From IMG/VR virus record IMGVR_UViG_2695420427_000002: a stretch of 8,008 bases of DNA, one strand, 5' to 3'. Position 1 is the first letter of the stretch. Each line of letters opens with the position of its first letter. The stretch is from a virus (lineage: Duplodnaviria > Heunggongvirae > Uroviricota > Caudoviricetes). Below the pieces are notes generated by a model. It worked only from the letters and a program-made list of their open reading frames with translations. It was not told where the DNA came from and ran no database searches. The translations under genes and the position numbers were made by a program. Positions 675 to 8,008 of this stretch are shown piece by piece.

Positions 675-749
<75 letters not shown>

Positions 750-752
750 ATA

Positions 753-828
<76 letters not shown>

Positions 829-830
829 GC

Positions 831-907
831 TGGCCCACCACCGAGGACTCGAACCTCGCACCGTCAACTTAGAAGGTTGATGCTCTATCCGGATGAGCTA
901 GTGGTGG
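831..907 (-). tRNA. tRNA-Arg (anticodon UCU, reads AGA/AGG), 77 nt with encoded CCA
   Basis: Reverse complement reads CCACCACTAGCTCATCCGGATAGAGCATCAACCTTCTAAGTTGACGGTGCGAGGTTCGAGTCCTCGGTGGTGGGCCA. Acceptor stem CCACCAC/GTGGTGG (C1-G72), anticodon stem TCAAC/GTTGA with loop CTTCTAA, T-stem CGAGG/CCTCG. 2-nt spacer to the Thr tRNA. Confidence 0.85.
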
Positions 908-908
908 T

Positions 909-985
909 TGGTGGCCCTTGCTGGACTTGAACCAGCGACCTGGCGATTATGAGTCGCTCGCTCTGACCAACTGAGCTAAAGGGCC
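909..985 (-). tRNA. tRNA with CAU anticodon, probably Ile2-type (AUA-reading, lysidine-modified) rather than elongator Met
   Basis: Reverse complement reads GGCCCTTTAGCTCAGTTGGTCAGAGCGAGCGACTCATAATCGCCAGGTCGCTGGTTCAAGTCCAGCAAGGGCCACCA. Acceptor stem GGCCCTT/AAGGGCC, anticodon loop CTCATAA. The anticodon and T arms resemble enterobacterial ileX-type tRNA as I recall it. 1-nt spacer to the Arg tRNA. Confidence 0.85.
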
Positions 986-1073: not shown

Positions 1074-1096
1074 AAAAAAACCCGCATAAAGCGGGC
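1074..1096 (-). terminator. Short rho-independent terminator just downstream of the Q-position gene (tR'-like position)
   Basis: Inverted repeat cccgc (1081-1085) / gcggg (1091-1095) with loop ataaa. On the minus strand it is followed by seven U (plus-strand A-run 1074-1080). It lies about 80 bp downstream of the stop at 1175-1177. Confidence 0.5.
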
Positions 1097-1174
1097 TCTT
1101 TCAAATGTCCATGTCTGCTATTCGCCTCGCGGTACAGCTTTGCGAAGCGTACAAGAATTGAAGCAGTTTTTACG

Positions 1175-1729
1175 TCAAAAAGCAATAACTTTTTTCTCTA
1201 TACCAAAAGCCATAACCATTGGTTTGTACAAAATAAATTCTGCCACCTTTAGCCAATGCTCAATGCGTCTTTCACAGGTTCTTAAACTCCATTTCGGGTG
1301 TGCATCATTCAGCAGTTCAGCCATTTTGCGTTTGGTCATCCCCCGCCCCTCATACCGTTGCCGAAGGACGCTAATCAATCCTGGATGCTCTGCCAGCACC
1401 TCACTTATGACCCGATCAATACATAACGCCTCTGCATCAGTACAATGCGCCAGCCAGCTCTTTTGCTTACCGTTAATCATATCCCGCAAAAAAGCCTCAA
1501 GTTCAGACTTGTTCAGACCTGCTTTTTTCATCCTCCGGAGCGCCTCGTTAATTGCCGTTTTTGTCAGCTTTTTAGAGGTCAACATCAGGTTAAACATATT
1601 CCCCGTCTTACCGCCACCAATATACGACCAGCGCCCCCACATACGTAGTTTTCCCTGAATCCAGACACTTTCCAGCGTGGTGAGACGAAGGTGTTCTCCG
1701 CTTTTTCCTGTATTCGTTGGGTAAATCAT
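1175..1729 (-). CDS. 184-aa protein at the Q position; putative late-gene regulator/antiterminator by synteny only
   Basis: Start ATG at 1729-1727 is preceded by GAAAGGAGGG 7 nt upstream and overlaps the upstream stop (ATGA at 1726-1729), so the longer 224-aa track ORF is not the real start. It is the last gene before the terminator and tRNA array. No Zn-finger motif recognised, so Q identity is an inference. Confidence 0.6.
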   Translation of the reverse strand: MIYPTNTGKSGEHLRLTTLESVWIQGKLRMWGRWSYIGGGKTGNMFNLMLTSKKLTKTAINEALRRMKKAGLNKSELEAFLRDMINGKQKSWLAHCTDAEALCIDRVISEVLAEHPGLISVLRQRYEGRGMTKRKMAELLNDAHPKWSLRTCERRIEHWLKVAEFILYKPMVMAFGIEKKVIAF

Positions 1730-2016
1730 AAATATCCCTCCTTTCTCCAGATTTCTTGTGTGCGAAAAACACCTTCTGCATGCATCAGGCGTAATTCTTC
1801 TTTGGTGTAATCGCTGGTTTTTACCCGCCCGTCGATTAAATCGTGGCACGAGCTACAGGCAATCGCTGCCTGCATATCGTGTGGCTTTATCGCTGTTCCG
1901 CACGTTCCCGCCAGTCGGTAATGCGCCAGCACAGACGTTTCCGGATCGTGATTGCAGTAGCCAGGAATTCTGACGGTGCACATCTGCCCCCGCGCCGCTT
2001 TACGTAAATCCACCAT
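1726..2016 (-). CDS. 96-aa Cys-rich YbcO-like (DUF1364-type) nin-region protein
   Basis: Four Cys in a C-x7-C ... C-x2-C-H arrangement (CTVRIPGYC ... CSSCH), and the same 96-aa length as E. coli DLP12 YbcO as I recall it. TAATG overlap with the upstream gene at 2014-2018. Confidence 0.6.
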   Translation of the reverse strand: MVDLRKAARGQMCTVRIPGYCNHDPETSVLAHYRLAGTCGTAIKPHDMQAAIACSSCHDLIDGRVKTSDYTKEELRLMHAEGVFRTQEIWRKEGYL

Positions 2017-2615
2017 TACGCAAACTCCAGCAGCTGCGCGGCCACATTTTCGACTTGTTCCGGAGAGGAAAATTTACGGAACAGAATCCAGTTCCACAGC
2101 ACATTCAGAACAGATTTATAAACCTGCTGAAACTCGGTTTCGTCCATATTCGCAAAAGCGATGGATTTTGCCCGACGCCCGCGGCTACCGTCCGGATAAA
2201 AATGTTCGGTGTAAAATCCAGCCTGAATGGTTACCCACTCGCGAAAAGCCTCAAACGACTTTAGCAATGCCGTATCCCGGGTTCTGCGTGTCGCAACTGT
2301 ATTCAGATATTGCTCTGCGGCTTCGCTCAGAGCTGGCGTATGTTCCCGACCTACTGATTCGCACAGGTAATCAACGAAACCAGACAGCAGTTCTCGTTCG
2401 CGAGGCGTGATCGCCCCACCGACCGGAGTCCAGTAATCGAATCCCAGTTGCAGGAGTTTGAAAAAACGCTTGTGGAATGCGTAGTTACGCACACGCTTAA
2501 AGTCTGCGTGTATCCACTCACCTGTTTTGATTTGATGCAGAAAATCGCAACTCTCCGGCGTCGCCGGGAGAAGTAATCCGGAAGAGGTTTGTTTGATCAG
2601 TTGTATATGCGCCAT
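2016..2615 (-). CDS. 199-aa conserved prophage protein of unknown function (copy 1 allele)
   Basis: ATG at 2615-2613 with GGAG-type Shine-Dalgarno upstream (cggagaactacgATG). Translationally coupled to the YbcO-like gene. Present in all three cassette copies. Confidence 0.65.
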   Translation of the reverse strand: MAHIQLIKQTSSGLLLPATPESCDFLHQIKTGEWIHADFKRVRNYAFHKRFFKLLQLGFDYWTPVGGAITPRERELLSGFVDYLCESVGREHTPALSEAAEQYLNTVATRRTRDTALLKSFEAFREWVTIQAGFYTEHFYPDGSRGRRAKSIAFANMDETEFQQVYKSVLNVLWNWILFRKFSSPEQVENVAAQLLEFA

Positions 2616-2662
2616 CGTAGTTCTCCGCTGGCGCAGTAGAATGGGTGTTCAGCCCGTTATGT

Positions 2663-2691
2663 AGTATACCAGAATTAATGCCAATACTAAC
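2663..2691 (-). promoter_or_regulatory. Candidate extended -10 promoter (TGgTATACT) in the unique junction upstream of cassette copy 1
   Basis: Minus-strand TGGTATACT (plus 2663-2671) with a weak -35 (gttagt). Lies within the unique 2616-2782 segment immediately upstream of the copy-1 199-aa gene. Confidence 0.25.
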
Positions 2692-2797
2692 AGGATGCTC
2701 TGACTCGCAATTCATCCAGCAGTTTATCATTTCCCATAATGTCACTTACCCTCATCGGTAAAAAAATTGCCTTTCGACCATAGAAGCAGTTTTTACG

Positions 2798-3352
2798 TCA
2801 AAAAGCAATAACTTTTTTCTCTATACCAAAAGCCATAACCATTGGTTTGTACAAAATAAATTCTGCCACCTTTAGCCAATGCTCAATGCGTCTTTCACAG
2901 GTTCTTAAACTCCATTTCGGGTGTGCATCATTCAGCAGTTCAGCCATTTTGCGTTTGGTCATCCCCCGCCCCTCATACCGTTGCCGAAGGACGCTAATCA
3001 ATCCTGGATGCTCTGCCAGCACCTCACTTATGACCCGATCAATACATAACGCCTCTGCATCAGTACAATGCGCCAGCCAGCTCTTTTGCTTACCGTTAAT
3101 CATATCCCGCAAAAAAGCCTCAAGTTCAGACTTGTTCAGACCTGCTTTTTTCATCCTCCGGAGCGCCTCGTTAATTGCCGTTTTTGTCAGCTTTTTAGAG
3201 GTCAACATCAGGTTAAACATATTCCCCGTCTTACCGCCACCAATATACGACCAGCGCCCCCACATACGTAGTTTTCCCTGAATCCAGACACTTTCCAGCG
3301 TGGTGAGACGAAGGTGTTCTCCGCTTTTTCCTGTATTCGTTGGGTAAATCAT
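2798..3352 (-). CDS. 184-aa Q-position protein, copy 2 (identical protein to copy 1)
   Basis: Identical translation to 1175-1729, same Shine-Dalgarno and ATGA coupling. Here it is followed after 15 bp by the unique junction, not by the terminator and tRNAs. Confidence 0.6.
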   Translation of the reverse strand: MIYPTNTGKSGEHLRLTTLESVWIQGKLRMWGRWSYIGGGKTGNMFNLMLTSKKLTKTAINEALRRMKKAGLNKSELEAFLRDMINGKQKSWLAHCTDAEALCIDRVISEVLAEHPGLISVLRQRYEGRGMTKRKMAELLNDAHPKWSLRTCERRIEHWLKVAEFILYKPMVMAFGIEKKVIAF

Positions 3353-3639
3353 AAATATCCCTCCTTTCTCCAGATTTCTTGTGTGCGAAAAACACCTTCT
3401 GCATGCATCAGGCGTAATTCTTCTTTGGTGTAATCGCTGGTTTTTACCCGCCCGTCGATTAAATCGTGGCACGAGCTACAGGCAATCGCTGCCTGCATAT
3501 CGTGTGGCTTTATCGCTGTTCCGCACGTTCCCGCCAGTCGGTAATGCGCCAGCACAGACGTTTCCGGATCGTGATTGCAGTAGCCAGGAATTCTGACGGT
3601 GCACATCTGCCCCCGCGCCGCTTTACGTAAATCCACCAT
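3349..3639 (-). CDS. YbcO-like 96-aa protein, copy 2
   Basis: Identical translation to 1726-2016. Confidence 0.6.
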   Translation of the reverse strand: MVDLRKAARGQMCTVRIPGYCNHDPETSVLAHYRLAGTCGTAIKPHDMQAAIACSSCHDLIDGRVKTSDYTKEELRLMHAEGVFRTQEIWRKEGYL

Positions 3640-4238
3640 TACGCAAACTCCAGCAGCTGCGCGGCCACATTTTCGACTTGTTCCGGAGAGGAAAATTTAC
3701 GGAACAGAATCCAGTTCCACAGCACATTCAGAACAGATTTATAAACCTGCTGAAACTCGGTTTCGTCCATATTCGCAAACGCGATAGATTTCGCCCGACA
3801 CCCACGGCTACCGTCCGGATAAAAATGCTCGGTGTAAAATCCGGCCTGAATGGCTACCCACTCGCGGAAAGCCTCAAACGACTTTAGCAATGCCGTATCA
3901 CTGGTTCTGCGTGTCGCAACTGTATTCAGATATTGCTCTGCGGCTTCGCTCAGAGCTGGCGTATGTTCCCGGCCTACTGATTCACACAGGTAATCAACGA
4001 AACCGGACACCAGTTTTCGTTCGCGAGGCGTGATCGCCCCACCGACCGGAGTCCAGTAATCGAAACCCAGTTGCAGGAGTTTGAAAAAACGCTTGTGGAA
4101 TGCGTAGTTACACACACGCTTAAAGTCTGCGTGTATCCACTCACCTATTTTGATTTGATGCAGAAAATCGCAACTCTCCGGCGTCGCCGGGAGAAGTAAT
4201 CCGGAAGAGGTTTGTTTGACCAGTTGTATATGTGCCAT
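3639..4238 (-). CDS. 199-aa conserved prophage protein, copy 2 (divergent allele, 7 aa differences)
   Basis: ATG at 4238-4236 with Shine-Dalgarno (ccggagaaagccgATG). The 213-aa track ORF begins at a TTG at 4280 and is probably not the true start. Differs from copies 1 and 3 at T/I, R/C, EL/KV, R/S, T/A and R/C. Confidence 0.65.
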   Translation of the reverse strand: MAHIQLVKQTSSGLLLPATPESCDFLHQIKIGEWIHADFKRVCNYAFHKRFFKLLQLGFDYWTPVGGAITPRERKLVSGFVDYLCESVGREHTPALSEAAEQYLNTVATRRTSDTALLKSFEAFREWVAIQAGFYTEHFYPDGSRGCRAKSIAFANMDETEFQQVYKSVLNVLWNWILFRKFSSPEQVENVAAQLLEFA

Positions 4239-4276
4239 CGGCTTTCTCCGGTGGCACGGTGTTACACAGCAGGAGT

Positions 4277-4564
4277 TCAATCCTGCTCAAGATTGTAGAT
4301 GAGTTTATTCTTCAGCAAAAGCAGAAAACCAGCCTTAAAACCAATCTCTTTCAAAACCCGTAATGATGTGACAAATTCGTCCTCACGCAAAATAAAACCG
4401 TCCGTCAGAAGTCCATTACAAAAATAAAATAACACAGCACCGCTCTTCCTTTGTTGAGATTGCAAACATCTAATGCGGCAATGGCTGACAATCGCTCCAT
4501 TCTCAACGCGCACAGCATAGAGGCCATTTTCACTAAAAATTTCACGCAATTCTTCGATTTTCAT
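4277..4564 (-). CDS. 95-aa hypothetical protein, first gene of the operon (at the position rem occupies in E. coli Qin)
   Basis: ATG at 4564-4562 with GGAAGG about 10 nt upstream and a candidate promoter about 80 bp upstream. Identical second copy at 6275-6562. Function unknown. Confidence 0.5.
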   Translation of the reverse strand: MKIEELREIFSENGLYAVRVENGAIVSHCRIRCLQSQQRKSGAVLFYFCNGLLTDGFILREDEFVTSLRVLKEIGFKAGFLLLLKNKLIYNLEQD

Positions 4565-4645
4565 CTTCAGAATCCTTCCAGATAAATAGCTCTCCCCTGT
4601 TCGGGGTCCATCCCTCTTCTCCCTGCGCGCTACTTAAGTGAGTCG

Positions 4646-4673
4646 ATTCTATCTGCGAAGGTGCGCGAATCAA
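4646..4673 (-). promoter_or_regulatory. Candidate sigma70 promoter for the 95-aa / 199-aa / YbcO-like / Q-position operon (TTGATT-16-TAGAAT)
   Basis: Minus-strand -35 TTGATT (plus 4668-4673), 16-bp spacer, -10 TAGAAT (plus 4646-4651), about 80 bp upstream of the 95-aa gene start. Confidence 0.4.
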
Positions 4674-4693
4674 ATTCACCGGAAATAAACAAC

Positions 4694-4736
4694 AAAAAAC
4701 CCGCCGAAACGCTGAGAGATCACAGCGATGGGCGGG
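4694..4736 (-). terminator. Rho-independent terminator downstream of hok
   Basis: Nested hairpin: outer arms cccgcc (4700-4705) / ggcggg (4731-4736), inner stem cgctg/cagcg. On the minus strand it is followed by six U (plus-strand aaaaaa 4694-4699). A 9-bp GC stem gggcgggga/tccccgccc at 4778-4805 lies in the hok 3' UTR. Confidence 0.55.
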
Positions 4737-4813
4737 TTAAGTGCGGGTGCGTTGAGGATGCCTGACACATCAGAGGTGGGCGGGGATGGGATCAGCTCCC
4801 CGCCCGGTCACTC

Positions 4814-4969
4814 TTACTTCCTGGATTCGTAGTCTACGAAGACAGCGACCTCCGTCTGGCCGGTTCGGATTCGTACCTCACAGAGGTCTTTCCTCGTTAC
4901 CAGTGCCGTCACTATGACGGTTAAACAGATGACGATCAGGGCGATTAACATCGCCTTTTGCTGCTTCAT
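4814..4969 (-). CDS. hok: Hok/Gef-family type I toxin (51 aa), copy lacking its own promoter
   Basis: MKQQKAMLIALIVICLTVIVTALVTRKDLCEVRIRTGQTEVAVFVDYESRK: single transmembrane helix followed by the Hok-family LTRK-LCE-R-R-G-EVA-F motif, close to HokD/RelF as I recall it. Shine-Dalgarno AAGGAG upstream of the ATG at 4969. The track ORF is an in-frame upstream extension to 5026. Confidence 0.85.
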   Translation of the reverse strand: MKQQKAMLIALIVICLTVIVTALVTRKDLCEVRIRTGQTEVAVFVDYESRK

Positions 4970-5047
4970 AGCCTGCTTCTCCTTGCCTTTCGGCATGTAA
5001 GAGGCTAACCTACATGTGCAAAGCATGAAATTGGCCTCAGATTAATG

Positions 5048-5350
5048 TTAAGCGTCTTGCCGGACGCGTAATGTTAACTGGGGCTTTTCTCTATCTGCCT
5101 TTTGGTGTTCATGCCTGAAAAGTTCAGACTTGTTCAGACCTGCTTTTTTCATCCTCCGGAGCGCCTCGTTAATTGCCGTTTTTGTCAGCTTTTTAGAGGT
5201 CAACATCAGGTTAAACATATTCCCCGTCTTACCGCCACCAATATACGACCAGCGCCCCCACATACGTAGTTTTCCCTGAATCCAGACACTTTCCAGCGTG
5301 GTGAGACGAAGGTGTTCTCCGCTTTTTCCTGTATTCGTTGGGTAAATCAT
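5048..5350 (-). pseudogene. Truncated Q-position gene: first 76 codons fused at the repeat junction to the hok leader, giving a 24-aa unrelated tail
   Basis: Identical to the 5' part of 1175-1729 down to about 5120. The translation then diverges (ELFRHEHQKADREKPQLTLRVRQDA) because the sequence beyond 5119 is the end of the neighbouring repeat unit. Confidence 0.75.
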
Positions 5351-5637
5351 AAATATCCCTCCTTTCTCCAGATTTCTTGTGTGCGAAAAACACCTTCTGC
5401 ATGCATCAGGCGTAATTCTTCTTTGGTGTAATCGCTGGTTTTTACCCGCCCGTCGATTAAATCGTGGCACGAGCTACAGGCAATCGCTGCCTGCATATCG
5501 TGTGGCTTTATCGCTGTTCCGCACGTTCCCGCCAGTCGGTAATGCGCCAGCACAGACGTTTCCGGATCGTGATTGCAGTAGCCAGGAATTCTGACGGTGC
5601 ACATCTGCCCCCGCGCCGCTTTACGTAAATCCACCAT
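5347..5637 (-). CDS. YbcO-like 96-aa protein, copy 3
   Basis: Identical translation to 1726-2016. Confidence 0.6.
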   Translation of the reverse strand: MVDLRKAARGQMCTVRIPGYCNHDPETSVLAHYRLAGTCGTAIKPHDMQAAIACSSCHDLIDGRVKTSDYTKEELRLMHAEGVFRTQEIWRKEGYL

Positions 5638-6236
5638 TACGCAAACTCCAGCAGCTGCGCGGCCACATTTTCGACTTGTTCCGGAGAGGAAAATTTACGG
5701 AACAGAATCCAGTTCCACAGCACATTCAGAACAGATTTATAAACCTGCTGAAACTCGGTTTCGTCCATATTCGCAAAAGCGATGGATTTTGCCCGACGCC
5801 CGCGGCTACCGTCCGGATAAAAATGTTCGGTGTAAAATCCAGCCTGAATGGTTACCCACTCGCGAAAAGCCTCAAACGACTTTAGCAATGCCGTATCCCG
5901 GGTTCTGCGTGTCGCAACTGTATTCAGATATTGCTCTGCGGCTTCGCTCAGAGCTGGCGTATGTTCCCGACCTACTGATTCGCACAGGTAATCAACGAAA
6001 CCAGACAGCAGTTCTCGTTCGCGAGGCGTGATCGCCCCACCGACCGGAGTCCAGTAATCGAATCCCAGTTGCAGGAGTTTGAAAAAACGCTTGTGGAATG
6101 CGTAGTTACGCACACGCTTAAAGTCTGCGTGTATCCACTCACCTGTTTTGATTTGATGCAGAAAATCGCAACTCTCCGGCGTCGCCGGGAGAAGTAATCC
6201 GGAAGAGGTTTGTTTGACCAGTTGTATATGTGCCAT
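5637..6236 (-). CDS. 199-aa conserved prophage protein, copy 3 (recombinant allele)
   Basis: The 5' end matches copy 2 (V at residue 7, same upstream sequence) while the body matches copy 1 at all the variable sites. Confidence 0.65.
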   Translation of the reverse strand: MAHIQLVKQTSSGLLLPATPESCDFLHQIKTGEWIHADFKRVRNYAFHKRFFKLLQLGFDYWTPVGGAITPRERELLSGFVDYLCESVGREHTPALSEAAEQYLNTVATRRTRDTALLKSFEAFREWVTIQAGFYTEHFYPDGSRGRRAKSIAFANMDETEFQQVYKSVLNVLWNWILFRKFSSPEQVENVAAQLLEFA

Positions 6237-6274
6237 CGGCTTTCTCCGGTGGCACGGTGTTACACAGCAGGAGT

Positions 6275-6562
6275 TCAATCCTGCTCAAGATTGTAGATGA
6301 GTTTATTCTTCAGCAAAAGCAGAAAACCAGCCTTAAAACCAATCTCTTTCAAAACCCGTAATGATGTGACAAATTCGTCCTCACGCAAAATAAAACCGTC
6401 CGTCAGAAGTCCATTACAAAAATAAAATAACACAGCACCGCTCTTCCTTTGTTGAGATTGCAAACATCTAATGCGGCAATGGCTGACAATCGCTCCATTC
6501 TCAACGCGCACAGCATAGAGGCCATTTTCACTAAAAATTTCACGCAATTCTTCGATTTTCAT
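6275..6562 (-). CDS. 95-aa hypothetical protein, second copy
   Basis: Identical to 4277-4564, with the same Shine-Dalgarno and upstream promoter candidate. Confidence 0.5.
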   Translation of the reverse strand: MKIEELREIFSENGLYAVRVENGAIVSHCRIRCLQSQQRKSGAVLFYFCNGLLTDGFILREDEFVTSLRVLKEIGFKAGFLLLLKNKLIYNLEQD

Positions 6563-6643
6563 CTTCAGAATCCTTCCAGATAAATAGCTCTCCCCTGTTC
6601 GGGGTCCATCCCTCTTCTCCCTGCGCGCTACTTAAGTGAGTCG

Positions 6644-6671
6644 ATTCTATCTGCGAAGGTGCGCGAATCAA
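6644..6671 (-). promoter_or_regulatory. Candidate operon promoter, second copy (TTGATT-16-TAGAAT)
   Basis: Same sequence as 4646-4673 at the 1998-bp offset. Confidence 0.4.
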
Positions 6672-6691
6672 ATTCACCGGAAATAAACAAC

Positions 6692-6734
6692 AAAAAACCC
6701 GCCGAAACGCTGAGAGATCACAGCGATGGGCGGG
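6692..6734 (-). terminator. Terminator downstream of hok, second copy
   Basis: Same sequence as 4694-4736 at the 1998-bp offset. Confidence 0.55.
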
Positions 6735-6811
6735 TTAAGTGCGGGTGCGTTGAGGATGCCTGACACATCAGAGGTGGGCGGGGATGGGATCAGCTCCCCG
6801 CCCGGTCACTC

Positions 6812-6967
6812 TTACTTCCTGGATTCGTAGTCTACGAAGACAGCGACCTCCGTCTGGCCGGTTCGGATTCGTACCTCACAGAGGTCTTTCCTCGTTACCA
6901 GTGCCGTCACTATGACGGTTAAACAGATGACGATCAGGGCGATTAACATCGCCTTTTGCTGCTTCAT
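6812..6967 (-). CDS. hok: Hok/Gef-family type I toxin (51 aa), copy with its native upstream region
   Basis: Identical to 4814-4969. Its leader extends into unique sequence at 7118-7194 that contains a promoter candidate. Confidence 0.85.
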   Translation of the reverse strand: MKQQKAMLIALIVICLTVIVTALVTRKDLCEVRIRTGQTEVAVFVDYESRK

Positions 6968-7143
6968 AGCCTGCTTCTCCTTGCCTTTCGGCATGTAAGA
7001 GGCTAACCTACATGTGCAAAGCATGAAATTGGCCTCAGATTAATGTTAAGCGTCTTGCCGGACGCGTAATGTTAACTGGGGCTTTTCTCTATCTGCCTTT
7101 TGGTGTTCATGCCTGAAGCAGATAGCCTCAAGCACCCGCAGTC

Positions 7144-7173
7144 ATTCTACTTACCTCGCCAATATGAAATCAA
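7144..7173 (-). promoter_or_regulatory. Candidate hok mRNA promoter (TTGATT-18-TAGAAT)
   Basis: Minus-strand -35 TTGATT (plus 7168-7173), 18-bp spacer, -10 TAGAAT (plus 7144-7149). Predicted start about 170 nt upstream of the hok ATG, consistent with the long leaders of hok-family mRNAs. Lies outside the repeat, so only this hok copy has it. Confidence 0.35.
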
Positions 7174-7194
7174 TCAGAAAGGTGCCCCATAAAA

Positions 7195-7881
7195 TCACTC
7201 CTTCTCTTCTTTACCGTAGTGGAGTTGACCAATTTTGATAAGAGGGCGTCCCTGAGATTTGCGGTGTAGATTGGTATCGCGCAGAGAATACACACAGCCA
7301 CAATATTCCTGCTGATAGAATTTTTCGCGCTTGCTGATTTCAATCATACGGGACGAGCCGCCCTGCTTGCGCCAGTTATAATCCCAGTACACCATGCCCG
7401 GATAATGCGCGACGGCTCGCCGCCCACAGTCGTTAACCTGCTGCATATTTTTCCAGCGTGAAATGCCCAGTGAACTGCTGATCACACTGAAACCATTTTC
7501 AGCGGCGTACAGCGCTGTCCGCTCAAAACGCATGTCAAAACACATGGTGCAACGGATCCCTCGTTCGGGCTCCCATTCCATTCCTTTGGCTCGTTCAAAC
7601 CAGTTGTCTGTGTCGTAATCAGCATCAATAAACGGCACGCCGTGTTGTTCAGCAAAGCGAATATTCTCATCCTTACGAATTAAATACTCTTTCTGAGGAT
7701 GAATGTTCGGGTTGTAGAAAAAGATGGTGTAGTCGATTCCCGAGGCCTGAAGCGCCTCCATCACCTCACCGGAACATGGAGCACAGCAAGAGTGCAGTAG
7801 TAGTTTGTTTGCCCCGTTTGGGAGCTCCAATTTGGGCCGTTTGAAATCAGCAACTGTCATAAATATGTTTATTGGGGTCAT
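7195..7881 (-). CDS. queH: QueH-like epoxyqueuosine reductase (DUF208 family), 228 aa
   Basis: Long clean ORF with the Cys-rich HSCCAPCS motif near the N-terminus and a C-terminal CGC motif, which I recognise as the DUF208/QueH signature. No obvious Shine-Dalgarno at either candidate start (7881 or 7860). Confidence 0.6.
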
Positions 7882-8008
7882 AAAAATATCAAAGAGTGTA
7901 GCATTAGAACGGGGCTATCGGAAACAGATGTGTGACTGCTCCCCGCCCTTTCGGGTGGTCTCCTGATGATTTGAGGGTGCAGAAATCCCTCCGGTTAAGG
8001 ATTAAATT

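Follow-up and report, generated by a model that had tools for sequence, protein, structure and literature searches.

Gene organization of the locus

The window, i.e. the whole 8,008-nucleotide stretch of Caudoviricetes DNA analysed here (IMG/VR record IMGVR_UViG_2695420427_000002), corresponds to the nin/late-regulatory segment usual for lambdoid prophages, with part of the gene set repeated (Table 1). The predicted order of transcription, on the minus strand, is QueH, hok/sok, Rem, DUF1367, YbcO, the Q-like DUF1133 gene, terminator, tRNAs, and lysis genes. The same gene content and order (QueH, hokD, Rem, DUF1367, YbcO/DUF1364, DUF1133, terminator, tRNA Ile/Arg/Thr/Gly, holin, and lysozyme) are found in the nin/late-regulatory module of Rac/Qin-like and Stx-type lambdoid phages of E. 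coli and Shigella, which is present as single-copy loci with 99-100% identity in many genomes. The window differs from this module in that Q and the upstream genes are separated by an additional 3.6 kb of partly truncated cassette material that represents two other alleles.

Table 1. Features identified in the window
Feature	Coordinates	Strand	Basis
tRNA array, four genes (CAT anticodon, Arg-TCT, Thr-TGT, Gly-TCC); present once	675..985	-	ARAGORN, RefSeq relatives
Strong intrinsic-terminator hairpin, AGAGCCCGC-UUUAU-GCGGGUUUUUUU; tR'-like position 3' of Q copy 1	1075..1103	-	Fold, z = -3.3
Q-position gene copy 1, DUF1133, 184 aa	1175..1729	-	ORF, Pfam
YbcO/DUF1364 copy 1, 96 aa	1726..2016	-	ORF, Pfam
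DUF1367 copy 1, 199 aa, 'B' allele; exact protein in S. sonnei prophage P-B	2016..2615	-	Pfam, locus comparison
P-B-specific remnant: intergenic stretch and a cut 70-aa hypothetical gene, of which the last 95 nt (2687-2781) remain	2633..2781	-	
J1: P-B sequence up to 2781, P-A sequence from 2783; 2 bp (AT) microhomology and an untemplated A	2781..2783		
Q-position gene copy 2	2798..3352	-	ORF
YbcO copy 2	3349..3639	-	ORF, Pfam
DUF1367 copy 2, 'A' allele; exact protein in S. sonnei prophage P-A	3639..4238	-	Pfam, locus comparison
Rem (95-aa gene) copy 2, PF27490	4277..4564	-	ORF, precomputed annotation
hok/mok ORF copy 2	4814..5026	-	ORF, Pfam
Chimeric Q' ORF, truncated, 100 aa: 77 native codons, junction codon, out-of-frame tail	5048..5350	-	ORF, Pfam
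J2: region upstream of hok (= 7117) bluntly joined to mid-Q (= 3122, 1499)	5119..5120		
YbcO copy 3	5347..5637	-	ORF, Pfam
DUF1367 copy 3, 'C' allele = B patch with A 5' end; exact protein in single-copy draft contigs	5637..6236	-	Locus comparison
Rem copy 3	6275..6562	-	ORF
hok locus copy 3, complete: hok/mok ORF (6812-7024) and full Rfam RF01794 element (6962-7137)	6812..7137	-	ORF, Pfam, Rfam
QueH (epoxyqueuosine reductase), present once; flanks the array on its upstream, early side	7195..7860	-	Pfam

Self-BLAST, ORF, and Pfam analyses bore out the first-pass annotation in that three DUF1367-YbcO-Q cassettes lie head-to-tail on the minus strand and that the terminator and the tRNA array adjoin copy 1 only. 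Its description of a three-gene module that occurs three times holds for copies 1 and 2 and needs correction for copy 3, in which the Q-position gene keeps only its first 77 codons. The YbcO proteins are identical across all three copies, as are the Q proteins of copies 1 and 2. The tRNA with the CAT anticodon was called as tRNA-Met by ARAGORN and is annotated as tRNA-Ile in the RefSeq relatives.

The Q-position gene matches DUF1133 with an E-value of 2e-107 (Pfam), and weak matches were obtained to PF06530 (Phage_antitermQ; 29.4 bits, cut-off 26) and to the Q21 structures 6p18/6jnx. DUF1133 has been assigned to the Q antiterminators by HHpred in surveys of Stx phages (PMC8136144). In colinear loci, Q is followed by the holin, lysozyme, and lysis genes. 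The arrangement resembles a lambdoid Q-type module: a Q-family protein is encoded directly ahead of the late operon, and a predicted intrinsic terminator, a hairpin with a U-tract, lies 3' of Q, after copy 1 only; no terminator hairpin follows copy 2 or 3 in the window. For the late promoter (PR') with a Q-binding/qut site that such a module would have between Q and the terminator, a consensus promoter scan of positions 1100-1175 yielded no site. A TTGACG hexamer lies directly past the Q stop codon, with no convincing -10 element alongside.

Copy 2 of Q has 16 nt of native sequence left past its stop codon, and neither a terminator nor a tRNA region of its own. The native part of the third Q runs from 5350 down to 5120; beyond this point the ORF continues in another frame through hok-upstream sequence. 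The resulting chimeric Q' ORF covers positions 1-78 of the 176 positions of Pfam DUF1133. Copy 3 of hok is a complete hok/sok type I toxin-antitoxin locus, with a match to PF01848 and a full-length RF01794 element (117 bits). In copy 2, the hok ORF is intact, but the 5' RNA element has been shortened by 20 nt at J2 with loss of the promoter-like site, and no Rfam match was obtained for the RNA element of this copy, which therefore does not qualify as a complete hok/sok locus.

Repeat structure and allelic composition

Three pairs of direct repeats were detected by self-BLAST: 3122-5119 versus 5120-7117 (1998 bp, 19 mismatches, no gaps), 1157-2632 versus 2780-4255 (1476 bp, 26 mismatches, offset 1623), and 1499-2632 versus 5120-6253 (1134 bp, 6 mismatches). 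Kilobase repeats at 98-99.5% identity are far beyond chance. The first is the tandem repeat previously reported to duplicate hok and the 95-aa gene, for which ORFs are present at both sites, and the spacing of 1623 bp given earlier between copies 1 and 2 was also reproduced. All 19 differences between copies 2 and 3 are confined to 3780-4147 (368 bp of 1998), within DUF1367. Copies 1 and 3 have the equivalent of this patch in common, and from 2597 on copy 1 alone tracks another prophage. In addition, 147 bp of copy 1 (2633-2779) have no counterpart in copies 2 and 3, where an unrelated sequence takes their place, in agreement with the distinct upstream junction noted for this copy. Stretches of 658-997 bp are identical between copies, which in our judgement makes it unlikely that the contig was derived from short reads alone.

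Comparison with natural loci established the block structure of the window and the identity of each allele: three prophage blocks and one orphan base account for every base. Positions 674-2781 are identical to the P-B loci of S. sonnei (L004-L013; no mismatches in 2108 bp), positions 2783-5119 to the P-A loci of S. sonnei (L021-L028; none in 2337 bp), and positions 5120-8008 to single-copy contigs (L014-L020; none in 2889 bp); positions 1-540 are 100% identical to S. sonnei loci L037 and L040. P-A and P-B occupy distinct sites within the same genomes, e.g. at ~0.78 and 1.95 Mb in strain 53G (HE616528), ~1.2 Mb apart. The allele of the third block is a BxA recombinant known from single-copy draft contigs, all of them <20 kb. 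Contigs L014 and L016 speak against the possibility that short-read chimerism between S. sonnei P-A and P-B generated this 'C' allele: it is probably real, because these two contigs carry it within an IS-free phage with different packaging genes.

Single-copy colinear loci with ~99% identity were found in FDAARGOS_944, FDAARGOS_943, IMG/VR locus L030, and loci L032, L034, and L038, and every related locus examined has one cassette; the comparison with close genomes that had been called for revealed a single-copy arrangement at 99% identity in complete genomes. The k-mer around the rare base 405A occurs in two IMG/VR contigs, L030 (colinear and single-copy) and L029, the latter being just 94-98% identical and containing no tandem array within the stretch examined. 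All S. sonnei loci fetched contain IS insertions at the equivalents of 540/541, 673/674, and 914/915, which are lacking in the window. The source of the window is thus unusual, having alleles 100% identical to those of S. sonnei yet none of its IS insertions.

Judged by these matches, the three "copies" are best described as pieces of three distinct related prophages, abutted at two abrupt joints. The suggestion that several related prophages contributed to the region is strongly supported by the three alleles, each of which has its own natural single-copy locus with 100% identity over 2.1-2.9 kb. The apparent triple cassette consists of head-to-tail fragments of three allelic versions with two differing, non-homologous junctions: a P-C-type fragment that stops at Q codon 77; a P-A-type fragment that begins 20 nt within the hok 5' RNA element and extends 16 nt beyond the stop codon of Q; and a P-B-type fragment that starts within the 70-aa gene and continues through the terminator and the tRNAs towards the lysis side.

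These alleles bear directly on the local amplification with later rearrangement that had been put forward for the array. RecA-independent tandem duplications and amplifications occur in bacteria and in phage lambda, and yield one allele and one recurring junction. The window resembles such products in its direct, head-to-tail kilobase copies on the same strand, in the exact 1998-bp tandem repeat of copies 2 and 3 without indels, and in its blunt or microhomology junction (J2), but it contains three alleles and two differing junctions where one of each is expected. If one cassette had been amplified in situ and its copies had diverged by point mutation, the 19 differences would have had to fall by chance within 368 of 1998 bp (probability ~1e-14 for random placement, by our own calculation) and to reproduce pre-existing natural alleles exactly; copy 1 moreover carries 147 bp that are foreign to the other copies. 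In-situ amplification followed by drift was rejected on account of the clustering and the exact allele matches; on the sequence comparison it appears effectively refuted, and we regard it as highly improbable.

Structure and uniqueness of the junctions

The two junctions (J1, AAAAATTGCCTTTCGACCATAGAAGCAGTTTTTACGTC, and J2, TGGTGTTCATGCCTGAAAAGTTCAGACTTGTTCAG, each given as a 35-mer) join different sequences, and both lie inside genes or RNA elements. Neither coincides with a shared repeat or an IS end, and no Ns are present. At J1, base 2782 is an A found in neither parent: both have T at this position, and on the P-A side T occurs in all 27 natural loci checked. An extra A is also the expected leftover from the ligation of dA-tailed or Taq-made fragments. 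J2 has 0 bp of homology and sits within a run of A.

Across all collections searched, J1 and J2 were found in this sequence alone. BLAST searches across J1 and J2 gave no match in 5,426 complete E. coli genomes, exact junction scans gave none in GTDB species representatives, IMG/VR, and JGI metagenomes, and no match was found in phage and plasmid records. Exact look-ups of the chimeric Q' ORF from four alternative starts gave no match among 15 billion proteins. No relevant reports of tandem duplications in S. sonnei prophages emerged from a literature search.

Collapse or misassembly induced by repeats, in its usual form, which had been considered earlier, was not supported as the source of these joins, since the switches between source loci lie between unrelated sequences outside the shared repeats, with 0-2 bp in common. 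With so little overlap, an assembler that follows overlaps or k-mers would need reads containing such joins. The other candidate processes also did not match the junction positions. An IS-mediated origin was rejected: no IS is present in the window, and the closest IS1 site in a relative (a target-site duplication of FDAARGOS_943 at 1123-1132) is 25 bp off 1157 and off both junctions, which does not fit an IS- or transposon-mediated duplication. Contig concatenation at IS or graph breakpoints was not supported either, as the block ends (2781 and the equivalents of 1159, 7117, and 1499) match none of the breakpoints compared, namely the S. sonnei IS sites at 540/541, 673/674, and 914/915, an IS1 near the equivalent of 2966, and draft-contig ends at the equivalent of 1087.

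Origin of the array

The array arose either by a one-off rearrangement or as a sequencing artefact. In the latter case, the three cassettes would belong to three separate prophages of the source, much as S. sonnei carries P-A and P-B apart, and their fragments would have been concatenated during assembly, finishing, or library preparation, e.g. through chimeric clones or reads, through unmerged contig or PCR-product ends placed by homology, or through gap-closing errors. Such an origin is in line with the identity of each block to a distinct natural single-copy locus, two of these loci co-residing far apart in the same genomes, with the single copy in every related locus, and with junctions private to one sequence across all collections searched; the untemplated A at J1 and the position of J2 in an A run are both compatible with the joining of A-tailed fragments. 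The window also resembles false assembly duplications, in which overlapping or paralogous contigs remain unmerged, in having paralogues side by side in one orientation within one record. However, it differs from them in that the joins contain neither Ns nor overlap and the ends are off repeat and IS boundaries. Ordinary graph or overlap misjoins induced by repeats do not explain junctions with 0-2 bp of overlap outside the shared repeats, and the block ends are off the S. sonnei IS boundaries where contigs break, sites that the window bridges seamlessly. Moreover, two independent random chimeras between paralogous loci in the same orientation and near register would be very improbable unless placement had been guided by homology, and no specific pipeline that predicts such coordinates was identified. 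We consider an artefact a serious contender, with a probability somewhat short of even.

We lean towards the interpretation that the array is a real, private product of illegitimate recombination among related lambdoid prophages, and favour it, with slight confidence, over an artefact. The likeliest origin would be homology-independent recombination in vivo between related lambdoid prophages in one cell. Paralogous prophages may have been linked by homology-anchored illegitimate joining or by template switching, or adjacent prophages may have undergone deletion-fusion, all of which would be consistent routes. Alternatively, J2 may go back to a simple tandem duplication, with a short DUF1367 patch exchanged afterwards. 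That the event was very recent and involved three co-resident or tandemly integrated lambdoid prophages, leaving an unselected mosaic intermediate with its joints still inside genes, has about an even chance of being correct.

In the Hendrix/Juhala model, the mosaicism of lambdoid phages arises via illegitimate recombination, and established mosaic joints are usually found at gene boundaries after selection. The window agrees with this model in that segments of different phage lineages meet without sequence homology. Unlike established joints, those of the window lie inside Q, the 70-aa gene, and the hok 5' element, and they have created redundancy without replacement. Intragenic joints that produce redundancy would look like either an unselected recent product or an artefact. 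Several points count against a real array: joins unmatched in all collections searched have no independent confirmation as biological joins; three alleles in one array imply a minimum of one heterologous illegitimate join and additional events, none of them shared with any other sequence, which is a rare combination; and the unusual source and the extra A at J1 also weigh on this side.

Implications for prophage evolution

Every component of the array is already known, and the array would involve no new regulatory biology. The functional outcome would be nothing new, the two intact Q proteins being identical; coupling to terminator, tRNAs, and lysis genes would be limited to the last cassette, the middle hok would lack a promoter and the beginning of its 5' element, and the third Q would be a truncated pseudogene. 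If the array is an artefact, the record needs correcting and the annotations of the three "paralogues" are untrustworthy. Whether it is real or not, tandem prophage cassettes should not be read as amplification without a comparison of their alleles.

If real, the array represents a small structural variant, private to this sequence, of a well-known prophage module, with a double dose of the identical Q protein and an added promoterless hok, and would be of modest interest for phage evolution. It would offer a direct view of how resident prophages become joined without homology, at arbitrary positions that selection has yet to clear. Homologous collapse of such an array would regenerate hybrid alleles, and a crossover between copies 1 and 2 within 2525-2596 would give exactly the natural 'C' allele.

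Organization of the array

All genes of interest in the window are carried on the minus strand and are listed in the table in order of transcription; holin, lysozyme, and lysis genes come directly next in the reference loci that are colinear with the window. The DUF1133 product, encoded at the Q position, weakly passes the Pfam threshold for Phage_antitermQ, gives a weak match to Q21 structures, and counts among the Q antiterminators in a Stx-phage survey (PMC8136144); judged by these sequence matches, it is a Q-like protein. The 95-aa gene has no match in Pfam, but the identical protein on public contigs is pre-annotated as PF27490 (Rem). The tRNA genes lie just downstream of the Q terminator and QueH, a tRNA-modification enzyme (epoxyqueuosine reductase), is encoded a few kb upstream, both being conserved in single-copy relatives. 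Between the tRNA array and the terminator, CCACCAGC at 1034-1041 corresponds to the Chi site GCTGGTGG on the minus strand (seen by eye).

Features of the window in order of transcription
Feature	Coordinates	Strand	Remark
QueH	7195-7860	-	first in transcription order
hok locus, complete (copy 3)	ORF 6812-7024; Rfam RF01794 element 6962-7137	-	
Rem, 95-aa gene (copy 3)	6275-6562	-	
DUF1367 (copy 3)	5637-6236	-	
YbcO (copy 3)	5347-5637	-	
Q-like gene, truncated (copy 3)	5350 down to 5120	-	
hok ORF, second	4814-5026	-	
Rem, second	4277-4564	-	
DUF1367 (copy 2)	3639-4238	-	
YbcO (copy 2)	3349-3639	-	
DUF1133 Q-like gene, complete (copy 2)	2798-3352	-	
Foreign stretch, 147 bp	2633-2779		between copies 2 and 1
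DUF1367 (copy 1)	2016-2615	-	
YbcO (copy 1)	1726-2016	-	
DUF1133 Q-like gene (copy 1)	1175-1729	-	
Terminator hairpin, strong	1075-1103	-	
tRNA genes (n=4)	985-675	-	CAT anticodon (tRNA-Ile in RefSeq annotation), Arg-TCT, Thr-TGT, Gly-TCC

Self-BLAST aligned 3122-5119 with 5120-7117 (1998 bp, 19 mismatches, no indels), 1157-2632 with 2780-4255 (1476 bp, 26 mismatches, offset 1623), and 1499-2632 with 5120-6253 (1134 bp, 6 mismatches). This geometry agrees with the first-pass annotation, which described three tandem cassette copies, a 1998-bp direct repeat, and an offset of 1623, with the terminator and tRNA array adjoining copy 1 only. The DUF1367/YbcO/Q module is indeed present three times, but the third Q-position gene is incomplete: its chimeric ORF (Q'; 100 aa, 5048-5350) retains 77 native codons and then runs out of frame into the hok upstream region.

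Three alleles and their natural loci

Copies 2 and 3 differ at 19 positions, all of them within 3780-4147 inside DUF1367, and the remainder of the 1998-bp unit is identical. The DUF1367 patch is common to copies 1 and 3, and copy 1 diverges from both other copies from 2597 on and is unrelated to them from 2633. To assign the blocks, loci were retrieved by exact-protein look-up and compared by BLAST. The segment 674-2781 matches Shigella sonnei prophage P-B (hok, IS1, 70-aa gene, DUF1367, YbcO, DUF1133, tRNAs, IS) with 0 mismatches over 2108 bp, 2783-5119 matches S. sonnei prophage P-A (QueH, hok, Rem, DUF1367, YbcO, DUF1133, IS) with 0 mismatches over 2337 bp, and 5120-8008 matches single-copy draft-contig loci carrying a third DUF1367 allele, 'C', with 0 mismatches over 2889 bp; positions 1-540 match L037 and L040, two further loci from S. 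sonnei, at 100% identity. P-A and P-B reside on the same chromosomes, ~1.2 Mb apart (~0.78 and ~1.95 Mb in strain 53G, HE616528). By sequence identity, the copies are thus three alleles rather than one cassette copied thrice.

The 'C' DUF1367 gene (that of copy 3; L014-L020) unites the patch of P-B (2157-2524 when numbered on copy 1) with the 5' end of P-A. Its occurrences in the public assembly index are confined to contigs of <20 kb, with none on a complete chromosome. This allele could be a genuine recombinant of the P-B and P-A alleles; alternatively, short-read chimerism across a 72-bp identical stretch could account for it in some S. sonnei drafts. Base 405 is A in the window and G in most relatives, A being shared with L037, L040, and the IMG/VR loci L029 and L030.

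The single-copy arrangement, which the first-pass annotation suggested seeking in close relatives, does exist. A comparison with 5,426 complete E. coli genomes gave FDAARGOS_944 and FDAARGOS_943 as the best matches (~99% identity); both align colinearly with the window except that 3621 bp are missing, which leaves one cassette. The cassette is also single in L030, which has the rare 405A, in 10 of 10 distinct genomic contexts encoding an identical QueH protein, and in every locus that the three DUF1367 alleles retrieved. In FDAARGOS_943, an IS1 (L002 7132-7898) separates the tRNA array from Q, the sequences on its two sides overlapping by 10 bp (target duplication) at the equivalent of window 1123-1132; the left repeat boundary, at 1157, is 25 bp away, apparently by coincidence.

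Junctions and IS elements

At the first junction (J1), P-B sequence extends to 2781 (…TTTCGACCAT), and from 2783 the sequence is again that of P-A (GAAGCAG…). Positions 2780-2782 read ATT in both parents and ATA in the window, and the P-A side reads AATT|GAAGCAG in 27 of 27 natural loci examined. J1 therefore comprises a 2-bp microhomology and a single base for which neither parent supplies the template. It interrupts the 70-aa gene at approximately codon 40, and only 16 nt separate it from the stop codon of the copy-2 Q gene. The second junction (J2, 5119/5120) joins P-A sequence upstream of hok (…CATGCCTGAA) bluntly to the middle of Q (AAGTTCAGAC…), with no shared bases. Through this join the middle hok loses its promoter-like site together with 20 nt from the start of its 5' RNA element, and only the copy-3 hok gave an Rfam match.

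Searches with exact J1 and J2 k-mers gave no match in GTDB species representatives, IMG/VR, or JGI metagenomes. When each junction was queried by BLAST, no site in any complete E. coli genome covered >=80% of the query; phage and plasmid records contained nothing comparable. The Q' ORF, with four alternative starts, was absent among 15 billion public proteins.

No IS sequence was found in the window, and neither junction lies at an IS end. Every fetched S. sonnei locus has IS insertions at the equivalents of 540/541, 673/674, and 914/915. In all fetched complete S. sonnei genomes, an IS replaces 541-914 of P-A (L022 11702-12948) with the loss of three tRNA genes, and an IS cuts P-B immediately left of tRNA-Gly, at 673/674 (L004 from 11943). 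The window lacks both, despite alleles that otherwise agree 100% with those of S. sonnei.

Origin of the array

The first-pass annotation offered a local amplification with later rearrangement or a collapsed or chimeric assembly of related prophages. Several related prophages did contribute, each allele representing a separate natural locus. In-situ amplification alone predicts one allele and one recurring junction; because three pre-existing alleles and two junctions were found, we regard it as extremely improbable. This leaves three related prophage segments joined as a heterologous concatenation.

We lean slightly towards an event in vivo, which may have involved homology-facilitated illegitimate recombination among related prophages, template switching between paralogous prophages, or deletion-fusion of adjacent prophages. 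This reading is favoured because the joins are non-homologous and overlap or k-mer assemblers cannot invent them without reads that contain them, and because the same orientation and near-register layout fit homology-associated illegitimate processes. Between copies, identity is unbroken over stretches of 658-997 bp, and in our judgement a contig of this kind needs long or Sanger reads, which would span the joins. An untemplated base at a microhomology joint, as at J1, is typical of illegitimate repair and was counted in the same direction.

That the array is an artefact is a substantial possibility, though we give it somewhat less than an even chance. It is private to one sequence, its alleles sit in separate prophages elsewhere, the expected S. 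sonnei IS insertions are missing, and the extra A at J1 and the A-run at J2 would both be expected from ligation of A-tailed fragments. However, the block ends match neither IS boundaries nor draft-contig ends, so that no pipeline mechanism found predicts them, and two random chimeras joining paralogues in register are improbable.

Functional implications

All complete copies encode identical Q and YbcO proteins, and the terminator, tRNAs, and lysis genes are coupled to the last cassette only; the array probably creates no new function. Its components are all known, and its layout represents no more than one private example of an already known type of event. In a real array, the additional sequence would form part of the early rightward/nin transcript and would contribute another dose of Q, a further two DUF1367 variants, a second Rem, a hok that lacks a promoter, and the Q' pseudogene. 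Single-copy hybrids would re-form if the array collapsed by homologous recombination; crossing over between copies 1 and 2 within 2525-2596 yields precisely the 'C' allele known from natural loci.
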